Shown: positions 57,528-60,737 of the stretch, piece after piece
Layout of the letters: every line of letters begins with the position of its first letter
Position numbering within the stretch: the stretch's first letter is position 1
NCBI GenBank assembly: GCA_965249275.1
Contig: CBDFLQ010000007.1
Coordinates: 736,001 to 800,000, forward strand
Reading direction: 5' to 3'
DNA length: 64,000 bases
DNA from: Dehalococcoidia bacterium
Lineage (GTDB): Bacteria; Chloroflexota; Dehalococcoidia; Plut-88900
Notes under the pieces: model-generated
Databases searched by the model: none
What the model saw: the letters and a program-made list of their open reading frames with translations, nothing else
Told to the model about the DNA's origin: nothing
Position numbers and translations under genes: made by a program

Positions 57528-58990
57528 CCCGAGCTAAGCGATCTCTGGAACATGTGGTACTGCACGAACTTGGCCAGGGACCGGCAGGCCCTGCGCAGCG
57601 ATGTGTAGGCAAGGAGGCCCGCTTCGGAGAACTCCTGCTGGAGCTTCTGATAGTCCATCTTGATGCGGGGGTCCCGGATGCGGACCGGCAGCAGGATGAC
57701 GACAGGCTTGCCGTTGGAATGGTCCCTGGCGATCTCTGCAAAGTCCGCGGCAACGGCCTTTTCGGGCTCGGACGTAACGTCGGTGTATTCGTTGAGGCTA
57801 GGGATCATTAGCAGCATGTCGATGGACGGGTCTGCAGTGACGAGGCGCGCGGCCTGTTGCTGCTTGTCCCGGACATTGGCCATGAAGGAGAGGTCGACCG
57901 GGTTTCGGACGCTGTTTCCAGCGTCGGGGATGAACTCCCGGAGACGGGCGCTGGTCTCGGAGGACAGCTCAGCCATGTCCAGGCCTTCTTCAGAGCAGAT
58001 GTCCGAGGCAGCGACACTGTTGCCCCCACCGCTGCCGATCATGGCGAGTCGGTTGCTTCGAGGAGCTGGTAGCAGGTTGAAGGCCTGCATGACGTCTACG
58101 ACTTCTTCGACTGAACCGGCGCGGACGGCGCCCGTTTGTCGGAAGAAGGCATCCCATATCGCGCCCTGGCCGGCTAGGGAGCCGGTGTGGGAGGCAGCAG
58201 CTCGTGAGCCTGATTCGCTGAGGCCGCCCTTCCAGATGATTACGGGTTTACGTGGGTTTATCTCCTGCACCAGCTTCAAGAGCTTCGGGCCGTTCTTGAC
58301 ACCCTCAATGTACATGCCGATGGTATTGGTGCTCTCGTCCTGGCCCAGGAACTCAAGGTAGTCCGCGCTTTCGAGGACCAGTGCATTGCCAAAGCTGATT
58401 ACCTTGCTGACTCCTATCCCAACATCCGCGGCTCGGAATATGAAGTCCATGGCATGCCCGCCGCTCTGGGCGACAAAGGCGGCGCTACCGGACCTGTTGG
58501 TAATGTCGCCGATGGTGGAGAACTGGGCCGCCGGAGAGTGTACGCCGAGGCAGTTGGGCCCAACGACGCGGATGTGATTTCGGGTGGCTACCTCCCTGAC
58601 GACCTTTTCCATCTCGACGCCTTCGGCCGTGGAGGTCTCCGAGAAGCCGGAGGTGAAGACGTGGACATTGAGCGCGCCAACAGAGGCGCAGTCTTCCAGC
58701 ACCGTTGCCAGGAACCGGGCAGGTACGGAGACGGTCACCATTTCGGGGACCTCAGGGAGGGCGGAAACAGAGGGGTAAGACTTGAGGCCGAGAATTTCGT
58801 CGGCTTTGGGATTGACGGGATAAATCTTGCCGGGATAGCCGAGCTTGAGGAGATAGGGGATGAACTGGCCCGAGGGGTTACTCCAGCCGGGACCTTTCGC
58901 CGAGGTGATTCGGGAGGCGCCCACTAAAGCTACGGATTTGGGATTGAACGCCTTGGCGAAGTCGGGGCCGAGGGGGGTTATGGATTGAAT
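57524..58990 (-). CDS. CoA-binding protein (ADP-forming acyl-CoA synthetase alpha-like); probable ATT start
   Basis: In-frame FNPKSVALVGAS upstream of GTG 58924; YPVNP, GPNCLG, QSGG and AA.SHTGSLAG motifs. Confidence 0.9.
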   Translation of the reverse strand: MQSITPLGPDFAKAFNPKSVALVGASRITSAKGPGWSNPSGQFIPYLLKLGYPGKIYPVNPKADEILGLKSYPSVSALPEVPEMVTVSVPARFLATVLEDCASVGALNVHVFTSGFSETSTAEGVEMEKVVREVATRNHIRVVGPNCLGVHSPAAQFSTIGDITNRSGSAAFVAQSGGHAMDFIFRAADVGIGVSKVISFGNALVLESADYLEFLGQDESTNTIGMYIEGVKNGPKLLKLVQEINPRKPVIIWKGGLSESGSRAAASHTGSLAGQGAIWDAFFRQTGAVRAGSVEEVVDVMQAFNLLPAPRSNRLAMIGSGGGNSVAASDICSEEGLDMAELSSETSARLREFIPDAGNSVRNPVDLSFMANVRDKQQQAARLVTADPSIDMLLMIPSLNEYTDVTSEPEKAVAADFAEIARDHSNGKPVVILLPVRIRDPRIKMDYQKLQQEFSEAGLLAYTSLRRACRSLAKFVQYHMFQRSLSSG

Positions 58991-59104
58991 GAGTCTTTGT
59001 CCTTATAAAGGTTGCGGTATCGGCTGAGAGGCCCAGGGCTAAAGCTCCGGAACGCCGGTATTATAGCCGTCTGTGGGAGGAGCCTCAAGATGGGGCTGGG
59101 AGCA

Positions 59105-59734
59105 TCACCAATTCGCCGGTTTCGTGATGACGCCAACAGGGTCGGTTAGACTGTCAGGAAACTGGCTGATCCTCAGATGGCTCTTCCAGAGACGCTTGAC
59201 GTAGGTCGCTGCTTTGGCCAGGTCCATGGGGCTGGTGTTCCTGGCATCCGGGTTCACGAGGGTGACTCGAAGGTCCAGGTCGTCCCTGACGGACCTCATC
59301 GCACCGGCGAAATCAGCGTCATTGGAGACGACGACCGCCTGCTCATATTCCCCTTTGAAGCCATCGATCAAGAGTCGAGTCGCCAGATTTACGTCCGATC
59401 CCTTCTCTTCCGAGTCCTTAACCAAAACATGAGCGGGCAGGCCCGGTACGGGCTCGGCAAGAGGACGACGCTTTACTCCAGAGCGGAAGACGCCGTAGTA
59501 GAACTCAAAGTCCGGGAGGGTTGCCAGTGCTCTCAGGTACGCCTGCTGTCTTTGGGGTTGGGCAAGATTGCTGGGACGTGCATCTAATCGGGCGGTGAAG
59601 TAGCAAATCTTGTGGATGGTGTCCAGGGGAAAGAGGGTCTCGGCCATCTTCCGTAGGTCTAGCCATCTGAATGGGGTGTCTTTAAGGGCTCGGTAGTAGA
59701 GATTGAAGCCATCAATGTACAGATTGGTTATCAA
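59105..59734 (-). CDS. NYN (PIN-like) domain ribonuclease
   Basis: YIDGFNLYY, YFTA, EEKGSDVNLA and SND.DF motifs; start is TTG 59734 or 59755. Confidence 0.9.
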   Translation of the reverse strand: MITNLYIDGFNLYYRALKDTPFRWLDLRKMAETLFPLDTIHKICYFTARLDARPSNLAQPQRQQAYLRALATLPDFEFYYGVFRSGVKRRPLAEPVPGLPAHVLVKDSEEKGSDVNLATRLLIDGFKGEYEQAVVVSNDADFAGAMRSVRDDLDLRVTLVNPDARNTSPMDLAKAATYVKRLWKSHLRISQFPDSLTDPVGVITKPANW

Positions 59735-59756
59735 TCTCCGGTTCCTAATTCTCAAT

Positions 59757-59818
59757 CAAAGACAGAGACCGCCCTTTGAGGCGGTCTCGACCCTACCGCC
59801 GAGGCGATAGGGGTGGTA
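59757..59818 (-). ncRNA. Candidate two-hairpin sRNA upstream of the NYN gene (copy A)
   Basis: CCCUAUCGC-CUCG-GCGGUAGGG, then GAGACCGCC-UCAAAG-GGCGGUCUC-UGUCUUU. Confidence 0.65.
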
Positions 59819-59823
59819 AAGGC

Positions 59824-59852
59824 AGAATAACTACCAGACACGCATCTGTCAA
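59824..59852 (-). promoter_or_regulatory. sigma70-type promoter
   Basis: TTGACA(59852-59847)-17 nt-TATTCT(59829-59824). Copy B has GCGACA-17 nt-TATTCT. Confidence 0.75.
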
Positions 59853-60185
59853 TGCACTGTGCCAGTTCATCCGCGCACACAACGAAAAGGGTGTTTCGTC
59901 GGTATTCCCGCGACGATGGATACAAAGACAGAGACCGCCCTTTGAGGCGGTCTCGACTCTACCGTCGAATCGATAGGGGTGGTAAGGACAGAATAACTAG
60001 CAGACACGAATTTGTCGCTGCTTTTACCACTTCATCTGCGCACACAACGGAAAGGGAGTTTCGTTGGTATTCCACGTGACGATAGGCTGGGTTGGGGCAC
60101 TGGTAGCTTCCTGAACGCTAAGGTATACTCGCGGGCGCATGGCCCCGCCGCCACACTATCCTGAGCGAGGGCCAAGGAGACCTCT

Positions 60186-60737
60186 ATATTAGACGACAGT
60201 TACAGAAACCATCTTAGGCCGAGAGTGGCCATTTTCATCGACGGAAGCAATCTTTATCATGCCATGGAAGAGTCCTGCAGACGAACGGACCTGAACTTCC
60301 CGAGGTTCGTGCAGAAATTGCTGCGGGGACGCCATCTGCTGAGGACCTATTACTACAATGTCCTCCAGGACAGCAGACGCAAGCCGCAGGGATTCGGGCA
60401 GCAGCAGAAGTTCCTCTCGGTGCTCCACAACACACCTTACCTGGAAGTGAAACTGGGCCGCTCCGCGATCAGGAAAGGCGTGGCGGTGGAAAAGGGCGTG
60501 GATATAATGCTGGCCACAGACATGCTCCAGTTAGCATGGAAAGACCTGTATGACACCGCAGTCCTGGTGAGCGGGGACGCCGACTTCGCCTACGCGGTAA
60601 AGACAGTCAAGGACATGGGCAAGTTCGTGGAAGTGGCCTGCTTCGAAGTCAATCAATCGAAAGATCTGGTAGAAATATCAGATTCTATAATTGAGCTTTC
60701 ACCGGAATTCTTCGAAGGGGTCTGGGCTAACAACTAA
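60186..60737 (+). CDS. NYN/LabA-DUF88 domain protein; probable ATA start
   Basis: AIFIDGSN, YYY, EKGVDI.LA.D, VSGD.DF and GK.VE motifs; AAGGAGA lies upstream of ATA 60186. Confidence 0.88.
   Translation: MLDDSYRNHLRPRVAIFIDGSNLYHAMEESCRRTDLNFPRFVQKLLRGRHLLRTYYYNVLQDSRRKPQGFGQQQKFLSVLHNTPYLEVKLGRSAIRKGVAVEKGVDIMLATDMLQLAWKDLYDTAVLVSGDADFAYAVKTVKDMGKFVEVACFEVNQSKDLVEISDSIIELSPEFFEGVWANN

Follow-up and report, generated by a model that had tools for sequence, protein, structure and literature searches.

Organisation of the NYN locus

The sequence analysed here, called the window, is a stretch of 64,000 nucleotides (nt) from the genome of a Dehalococcoidia bacterium (contig CBDFLQ010000007.1, positions 736,001 to 800,000). 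Its minus strand carries the gene of a NYN ribonuclease of the HEC-09 family, which is preceded by two head-to-tail units of about 166 base pairs (bp), unit A (59922-59757) next to the gene and unit B (60088-59923) distal to it. A preliminary description of the locus, made from the sequence alone, had recognized in it the succession of promoter, RNA of about 60 nt, terminator and NYN gene, and this anatomy was read correctly. The features are listed below. Bit scores are those of R1, a covariance model built from an alignment of 107 modules.

59105-59734, minus strand: gene of the NYN ribonuclease, candidate toxin, HEC-09 family; 209 amino acids from the TTG at 59734
59735-59756, minus strand: gap of 22 nt between the terminator tail and the NYN start, with Shine-Dalgarno-like AGGA/GGAG
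59757-60088, minus strand: tandem duplication as a whole; two units, each made of upstream region, promoter, RNA and terminator
59757-59817, minus strand: predicted small RNA, proximal copy A, 61 nt; R1 81.9 bits, E = 1.3e-25
59812-59791, 59788-59765 and 59764-59757, minus strand: hairpin 1, hairpin 2 (terminator) and U-rich tail of copy A, from the fold
59824-59852, minus strand: promoter of copy A; -35 TTGACA (59852-59847), spacer of 17 nt, -10 TATTCT (59829-59824)
59923-59983, minus strand: predicted small RNA, distal copy B, 61 nt; R1 78.8 bits, E = 1.5e-24
59978-59957 and 59954-59931, minus strand: hairpin 1 and terminator hairpin of copy B, from the alignment with copy A
59990-60018, minus strand: promoter of copy B; weaker -35 GCGACA (60018-60013), -10 TATTCT (59995-59990)

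The start of the RNA of copy A was placed from the promoter geometry, with 6 nt between the -10 and the first base of the conserved RNA. Repeat finding detected a direct repeat of 99 nt (59757-59855 and 59923-60021, 89% identity, spacing 166) and a second pair of 47 nt (59862-59908 and 60027-60073, 89% identity, spacing 165). The mean column identity of the units aligned whole is 90%. In a global pairwise alignment, A and B are 86% identical overall, with 82% for the promoter part and 94% for the RNA part, a difference to be expected if both RNA copies were under selection or subject to gene conversion. A stretch of 35 nt, comprising the terminator hairpin and the T-rich tail, is identical in the two copies. 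A consensus scan placed 10-pair terminator-like hairpins at 59788-59765 and 59954-59931; it contained three promoter-like sites (0.7 +/- 1.0 in shuffles) and three terminator-like sites (1.2 +/- 1.1 in shuffles).

Hairpin 1 of copy A has nine pairs, one of them G-U, and a CUCG loop. In copy B the loop is UUCG, closed by A.A, and the stem contains one further mismatch, C.A. The A.A variant is common in the RNA family (this pair is unpaired in 67 of 106 sequences) and the C.A mismatch is rare (one sequence of 106). Compared with shuffled sequence, unit A folds with a z-score of -4.45 and unit B more weakly, with -2.9. The 166-bp period, the identical terminators, the perfect -35 and G-U-containing hairpin of the proximal copy, and the GCGACA, UUCG loop and two stem mismatches of the distal copy had all been noted in the preliminary description and were all recovered.

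Read support for the duplication, proposed there as a check, was found in assembled contigs: a contig of 165 nt covering 59788-59952, across the A/B junction, is present with one difference in two DNA-type runs from two studies, one of which may be the window's own source sample. Because contigs bridge the junction and the copies differ by 14%, the tandem duplication is genuine and not an assembly artefact. Two explanations had been offered for it. Amplification of the RNA dose by tandem duplication fits; the scar of a deleted toxin cassette does not. The 3' tail of copy B passes directly into the 5' end of unit A, and nothing of a NYN start is left between the two; the scar of a lost gene was consequently rejected for this window. 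Such scars exist elsewhere. Two modules precede the NYN gene in 17 of 80 homologous loci; the distal copy is followed by a NYN start remnant in four of the 17 and runs straight into the next promoter in ten, and three are arranged otherwise.

Conservation and structure of the RNA

The 80 homologous loci were fetched as those encoding proteins 76-85% identical to the 209-amino-acid NYN protein. The last 61 nt of the unit lie directly upstream of the NYN gene in all 80 of them. The first 105 nt or so are not conserved outside the genus, except for two short boxes that correspond to the -35 and the -10. Among 101 modules, the -10 has the form TAnnnT in 98, with a TGn extension in 66, and the -35 is within two mismatches of TTGACA in 91 (perfect in 49). 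The spacer measures 17 nt in 70 modules and its sequence is free to vary; in 76 the end of the -10 is separated from the first conserved base by 6 nt. Conservation thus sets in at the predicted transcription start, as is characteristic of RNA genes that possess a promoter. From this comparison, the 61-nt module is a putative RNA gene with a sigma-70-type promoter of its own, predicted to be transcribed.

The multi-alignment of 107 modules supports a structure of two hairpins, in which 92.3% of the cells are paired; slid registers pair only 35-50% of them. Changes on both sides are observed at 12 of the 19 pairs, against 4.5 in shuffles, and none of 500 shuffles reached the observed value. At one position pair of hairpin 2, 75 sequences have C-G, 26 have U-G and five have U-A. 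Since U-G pairs are mismatches on the other strand, the transcribed strand would be the NYN-sense strand; the preliminary description had chosen this minus strand from a single G-U pair, and the G-U pairs of the whole family fit no other. After re-alignment with R1 of 62 matches, distant ones included, 15 of the 19 pairs change on both sides (7.0 in shuffles), in an alignment that was fitted to R1 and hence leans towards the structure. Hairpin 1 is C-rich with a UUCG-type loop. Variation of the RNA is confined to the loops and to the top of hairpin 1, and no variable, guide-like segment is present. The two hairpins fold independently and no alternative anti-terminator pairing appears in the folds.

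The search of Rfam 15 over 58900-60400 gave a single irrelevant match (E = 1.9). On six related loci, only RNAI exceeded its gathering score, at plasmid origins and away from the module. The RNA is thus a conserved family outside Rfam 15. The exact 17-nt core of the RNA has a single match in the viral contigs of IMG/VR, inside a coding region and unrecognised by R1, which we attribute to chance. In two metagenome-type runs the summed contig depth at 59748-59835 exceeds that of the flanks by a factor of 10-100, as would be expected if the community contained many related copies; it is no measure of expression.

The NYN gene and its product

The longest open reading frame of the NYN gene starts at 59755, and the TTG at 59734 was taken as start codon; the equivalent TTG is the start in 76 of the 80 homologous loci. 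In these loci the gap between terminator and start measures 9-21 nt (14-15 nt in 61 of 80) and contains a Shine-Dalgarno-like motif in 62. This gap is too short for a separate promoter, and NYN would therefore have to depend on read-through of the terminator. Paralogues of 46-52% identity (L033, L013, L034, L014 and the copy at C5 50313-51013 of the window's own genome) have no in-frame ATG, GTG or TTG after the terminator; they seem to be translated from an ATC codon that follows a GGGAAG-type motif by about 8 nt.

The protein scores 32.8 bits with the NYN family PF01936 (gathering score 24.2). In PADLOC it is recognized by HEC-09 only (PDLC04163, E = 9.7e-35), residues 5-209 covering positions 6-202 of the 203 of the profile. 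All 17 sequences compared, the most distant at 32% identity, share the residues D8, E110, K111, D114, D139 and D141. The AlphaFold2 model, with a pLDDT of 90.7, has the NYN fold, and the top matches obtained with Foldseek are the LabA-like protein 2qip and the NYN domains of MARF1 (5yaa and 6fdl). From the invariant catalytic acidic residues and the modelled fold, the nuclease looks active. The protein gave no match in a sequence search of the PDB and no family in NCBIfam. Records of Klebsiella and Xanthomonas plasmids (H53, H61, H70 and H77) label the NYN protein "6-hydroxy-3-succinoylpyridine 3-monooxygenase HspA", which looks like a propagated misannotation.

Linkage of RNA and NYN genes in related genomes

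R1 detected 29 matches at E <= 1e-8 in 61 related genomes, 21 in arrays beside a NYN homologue and eight orphans. Conversely, 19 of the 20 NYN homologues found in these genomes at E <= 1e-20 have an RNA copy within 300 nt (17 by the default search and two, belonging to a subfamily of 38-40% identity, with filters off). The paralogues of 41-52% identity, the C5 copy of the window's own genome included, are associated with related RNAs that differ in the terminator stem and, by compensatory changes, within hairpin 1. Each protein clade has, therefore, its own RNA variant.

The preliminary description had suggested comparing the repeat number between homologous loci, and it does vary: the site syntenic with the window has three tandem units in G003 and one in G005 and in G002. 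The proximal copies of the window's genome (G000) and of G003 share the perfect TTGACA. The -35 of the distal and solitary units of the genus is TCGACA or GCGACA, and two of the three copies of G003 are 95% identical. The shared proximal TTGACA and these near-identical copies indicate that the array is old and still changing.

The cassette seems to behave as a selfish or mobile element: it occurs in several copies per genome and on many plasmids, and copies of 76-81% identity are found in Acidimicrobiia. Metagenome-assembled genomes of this class (L071, L072, L087, L101, L129, L131 and L133) have the same RNA with a NYN protein of 76-81% identity; the similarity of these sequences points to a recent transfer between phyla. 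Locus L139 (G059, C1 2047500-2053000) combines two NYN genes (48% and 43% identical to that of the window) and four RNA copies within 3 kb; two of the RNA copies lie just downstream of the first NYN gene, which has no RNA upstream. In G004, the site syntenic with 59105-60088 (L044, 1501-2213) lacks the 209-amino-acid NYN gene and has two RNA modules (71.8 and 56.4 bits) flanking an opposite-strand open reading frame of 130 amino acids (1651-2043) with no Pfam match. This arrangement could reflect a cassette exchange between RNA copies.

Opposite-strand RNA genes and loss of the NYN gene

In a Mycobacterium prophage and a Paenarthrobacter plasmid, where the NYN protein is 40-41% identical, the RNA gene is downstream on the opposite strand and convergent on the NYN stop codon. 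These RNA genes have their own TTGACA/-10 promoter at the usual distance and are recognized by R1 with E = 1.2e-16 (Mycobacterium) and 1.3e-10 (Paenarthrobacter). The RNA shares 3 nt with the stop codon in L146 and is separated from it by 17 nt in L145. In the subfamily of 38-40% identity (G002 and G003), two opposite-strand RNA copies flank the NYN gene. Altogether, an opposite-strand RNA gene is present in four loci of three lineages (L145, L146, L158 and L159).

The RNA is also found where the NYN gene is damaged or absent. At the site syntenic with the window, G005 and G002 keep a single complete unit, whose scores of 83.5 and 81 bits are no lower than those of intact loci. The NYN gene of this site has lost an internal segment equivalent to window positions 59702-59116; what remains is a stretch of roughly 54 nt directly after the RNA and the final 11 nt of the open reading frame. 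At the site of the paralogue, G007 and G008 keep promoter and RNA, and NYN is gone from the start codon onward. The NYN homologues interrupted by internal stops (two with one TAG, one with three TGA) all keep the RNA. Judged from these sequences, retention of the RNA after loss of NYN is the decay pattern expected of an antitoxin.

Plasmid and phage relatives

The NYN family is large, with 2,353 clusters at E <= 1e-10 among 1.84 billion cluster representatives. It is present on 429 plasmid records (207 from Klebsiella, 55 from Xanthomonas and 38 from Escherichia), which include plasmids of 3.4-4.6 kb. On the 4.6-kb plasmids of E. coli, hairpin 1 is repeated in tandem four or five times (period 29-33 nt), and one terminator and the NYN gene follow; this cassette was found in 10 of 5,426 complete E. 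coli genomes. Some relatives adjoin HsdR (restriction), DUF3800 or HEPN genes, and serine-recombinase genes are near some copies.

Fifteen plasmid or phage loci were fetched (L142-L156). Six of them have an R1 match with E <= 1e-4 adjoining the NYN gene. In four others, from Xanthomonas, Klebsiella, Pseudomonas and Granulicella, the matches at this position are weak (E 0.001-0.05); inspection by eye reveals the usual succession of promoter, hairpin, terminator and ribosome-binding site. Aeromonas L150 and E. coli L154 gave only weak opposite-strand matches downstream of the gene (E about 0.001-0.002); a terminator is visible by eye just before their ribosome-binding site. Klebsiella L151 gave only a weak match to the terminator half of R1 (positions 32-55), just upstream of the gene.

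On the Thiothrix unzii plasmid (L149), the NYN gene is preceded by an overlapping gene for a helix-turn-helix protein of 120 amino acids (positions 242-604, HTH_5, E = 1e-4). The helix-turn-helix protein may stand in for the RNA as the partner of NYN.

Nature of the RNA-NYN pair

We propose, with a probability of roughly 0.55, that the RNA and the NYN protein form an RNA-antitoxin/protein-toxin module of a type III-like kind. The proposal draws on the anatomy of the locus, its conservation and covariation, the linkage in several orientations and the survival of the RNA after NYN loss, all of them read from sequences. In such a module, a constitutive sigma-70-type promoter would produce the 61-nt RNA in excess, and hairpin 2 with its interrupted U-tail would act as a leaky intrinsic terminator. 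The NYN protein, whose gene is promoterless and has a weak TTG start, would be made only from the minority of read-through transcripts, and the RNA should therefore be in large excess over the protein. The RNA would bind the NYN protein via hairpin 1 and hold the nuclease inactive, in the manner of a type III antitoxin. When transcription stops, for example upon phage attack or loss of the element, the RNA would decay and the nuclease would be freed. Additional RNA copies (two here, three in G003, four or five hairpin repeats on the E. coli plasmids) would raise the RNA dose and the safety margin.

Several observations weigh against this proposal. The upstream, same-strand layout of most loci is also expected of a cis-acting leader. 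Each RNA copy of the window has its own promoter, which makes processing by the toxin unneeded, unlike in the three classical type III families, and the fold of the protein is not that of ToxN. HEC-09 protected against none of the phages tested and no toxicity is reported for it, in the part of the preprint used here (bioRxiv 10.1101/2024.01.29.577857). One NYN homologue of 34% identity (G033) has no RNA nearby according to R1, and two of the 15 plasmid or phage loci (L147 and L149) have no R1 match near the NYN gene. The contigs from two metatranscriptome runs that cover the module have 4-5 differences, come from relatives and extend more than 400 nt beyond the module, so that they reveal neither a discrete RNA nor its ends. 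Finally, transcription of the RNA, binding, inhibition and toxicity are all inferred.

The layout of most loci could also be that of a purely cis-acting leader or attenuator. The hairpins would then be the 5' untranslated region of NYN, the terminator would throttle NYN without any toxin-antitoxin relation, and the protein may regulate itself by cleaving or binding this leader, in the way of RNase E and RNase III. Such a leader would explain why the module of all 80 close loci precedes a promoterless NYN gene on the same strand, 9-21 nt before its start codon, and why the same layout is seen by eye on plasmids of Xanthomonas, Klebsiella, Aeromonas, Pseudomonas and Granulicella. We nevertheless regard it as unlikely, and it fits poorly with RNA genes that stand on the opposite strand with their own promoter in four loci of three lineages, with RNA and intact promoter kept after deletion of NYN at two separate sites, and with the four- to fivefold multiplication of hairpin 1 in E. 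coli. Moreover, the folds contain no anti-terminator, and hairpin 1 has kept its sequence across phyla to a degree far beyond the need of a plain terminator. Action in trans is favoured because RNA genes occur on the opposite strand, outlive NYN and are multiplied, and no competing structure is seen; a trans-acting, type III-like RNA antitoxin would fit the comparative data best.

A further alternative is a non-toxic ribonucleoprotein, where the RNA is a cofactor, scaffold or natural substrate that activates or targets NYN and inhibits nothing. The tight linkage and the co-variation of RNA and protein subfamilies would suit it, as would the embedding of HEC-09 in defence systems (in the part of the preprint used here) and the restriction, DUF3800 or HEPN genes beside some copies. 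It appears even less likely than the leader, given that the RNA has no guide-like segment and that at several sites the RNA gene has survived the loss of the protein gene, as one would not expect of a cofactor; weak starts and a terminator before the protein gene suggest, in addition, that the protein must stay scarce. The hairpins might instead be recombination or transposition signals in the DNA, with the tandem copies as by-products of insertion: the cassette is multi-copy and horizontally spread, its copy number differs between sister genomes at one site, and serine-recombinase genes lie near some copies. This is very improbable. The frequent G-U pairs (A.C on the other strand) and the fixed promoter distance indicate a transcribed RNA, no transposase is consistently linked, the NYN gene was lost through internal deletions, with parts of it left behind, and not by clean excision, and no other copy of the unit was found in the window's own genome. 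The explanation to which we give the least credit is a type I-like antisense RNA pairing with the NYN mRNA around the ribosome-binding site. The predicted duplex of the window is stronger than that of shuffled RNA (z = -2.4, with three of 200 shuffles as good), but four other lineages give no signal (z from -1.3 to +0.4), and the convergent copies merely abut the stop codon and leave the coding region uncovered.

Comparison with known systems

Type III loci are defined by repeats followed by a Rho-independent terminator and then the toxin (PMC5086642, in the part of the article used here). With ToxIN, CptIN and TenpIN, the NYN module shares the succession of promoter, RNA, Rho-independent terminator and promoterless ribonuclease gene described in that part: the terminator is 22 nt before the TTG and the sole promoter is upstream of the RNA. 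Tandem RNA units are common to both (four or five short repeats on the E. coli plasmids, two or three long units in this genus), and so is the presence on plasmids, in prophages and on chromosomes. The differences concern both partners. The repeats of type III loci lie within one transcript that the toxin cuts, whereas the 166-bp unit has its own promoter and terminator. Their toxin is ToxN, CptN or TenpN (AbiQ-like) and the protein here has a NYN (PIN-like) fold. Where ToxI is described as having pseudoknot repeats, the RNA here consists simply of a hairpin followed by a terminator, and nothing in it suggests such repeats. Unlike in type III loci, the RNA gene is on the opposite strand in some lineages of the NYN module. 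The type III analogy drawn in the preliminary description has gained strong comparative support, and the interpretation overall is partly supported.

In AvcID, a non-repetitive small RNA, AvcI, is present in excess and directly inhibits a protein other than ToxN; in ToxIN as in AvcID, a halt of transcription leads to the decay of the labile RNA and thereby to activation (PMC10511110, in the part used here). The NYN module resembles AvcID by a non-repetitive small RNA associated with a non-ToxN protein, with an inhibition that would be similar. In contrast, the AvcID toxin is a deoxycytidylate deaminase and AvcI measures about 170-300 nt with no predicted terminator before avcD, according to the same part of that article, whereas the RNA of the NYN module measures 61 nt and ends in a terminator.

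HEC-09, the Hma-embedded candidate 09, is a candidate defence gene for a MARF1-like NYN protein found in Hma defence systems (bioRxiv 10.1101/2024.01.29.577857, Payne et al., in the part used here). The protein of the window matches the profile over its full length and shares with HEC-09 the conserved aspartates and the MARF1-like NYN fold. Neither "non-coding" nor "ncRNA" occurs in the main text of that preprint, and in the part used here HEC-09 is described as a single protein gene. Differently from the Hma-embedded form, the gene of the window stands between metabolic genes: the neighbours are a coenzyme A ligase-like gene, a LabA-type gene and oxaloacetate decarboxylase beta, and no Hma system is present.

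The rne and rnc leaders are structured RNAs with an autoregulatory role that precede a ribonuclease gene. Like these leaders and the terminator attenuators, the NYN module places a structured RNA and a terminator directly before a ribonuclease gene that depends on read-through. Unlike them, its RNA gene can be on the opposite strand (L145, L146, L158 and L159), persists without the gene and is multiplied; it is not always a co-oriented 5' element.

Literature searches combining NYN with toxin-antitoxin, small RNA and type III retrieved no description of an RNA antitoxin for a NYN protein. The association is a real and widespread RNA-protein gene pair that was not found in these searches, and it is, on the comparative data, best filed as a variant of the RNA-antitoxin (type III-like) systems with a NYN protein. 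More tentatively, and at slightly less than even odds, HEC-09-type NYN proteins with their hairpin RNA may constitute a fourth, very widespread RNA-antitoxin (type III-like) toxin-antitoxin or defence family, and not a single-gene one. If so, this family would range from chromosomes of Dehalococcoidia and Acidimicrobiia to plasmids of E. coli, Klebsiella and Leptospira and a mycobacterial prophage. The RNA copy number (one to three promoter-bearing units, or four to five hairpin repeats) would be an evolvable dial of the antitoxin dose, and the RNA variants would insulate paralogous pairs within one genome. It would add a PIN-like nuclease to the class of RNA-antitoxin systems, which to our knowledge has so far comprised the ToxN-type families and AvcD. 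If an RNA partner has gone unrecognised, such NYN genes would have to be cloned, tested and annotated differently; the family is on plasmids that include many from clinical Klebsiella and E. coli. The natural series of one, two and three RNA copies, together with the protein-less RNA genes, would provide material on the evolution of antitoxin dose.

The LabA-type neighbour and other features of the window

The second NYN-domain gene, which the preliminary description had placed divergently beside the locus, was found there:

60225-60737, plus strand (divergent): LabA-type NYN gene; PF01936, E = 1.5e-25

It is kept in all four syntenic genomes, with or without the 209-amino-acid NYN gene. Some genomes outside the genus, such as G025, G031, G036, G022, G044 and G046, have only weak NYN-domain matches (E from 1e-6 to 1e-12, 29-42% identity), which were not classified as LabA-type, and R1 found nothing in them. 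As R1 gave nothing in these genomes, the LabA-type gene was rejected as partner of the RNA. It is probably a syntenic bystander and not part of the module.

A weak R1 match (18.2 bits, E = 9e-4) is located at positions 568-669 of the window, on the minus strand and far from any NYN gene. Finally, a small hairpin and, after it, a T-rich run are present in each of the two units (59880-59901 and 60045-60066, minus strand), some 30 nt upstream of the -35. This hairpin is kept by all units of the genus and could insulate the promoter from upstream transcription.

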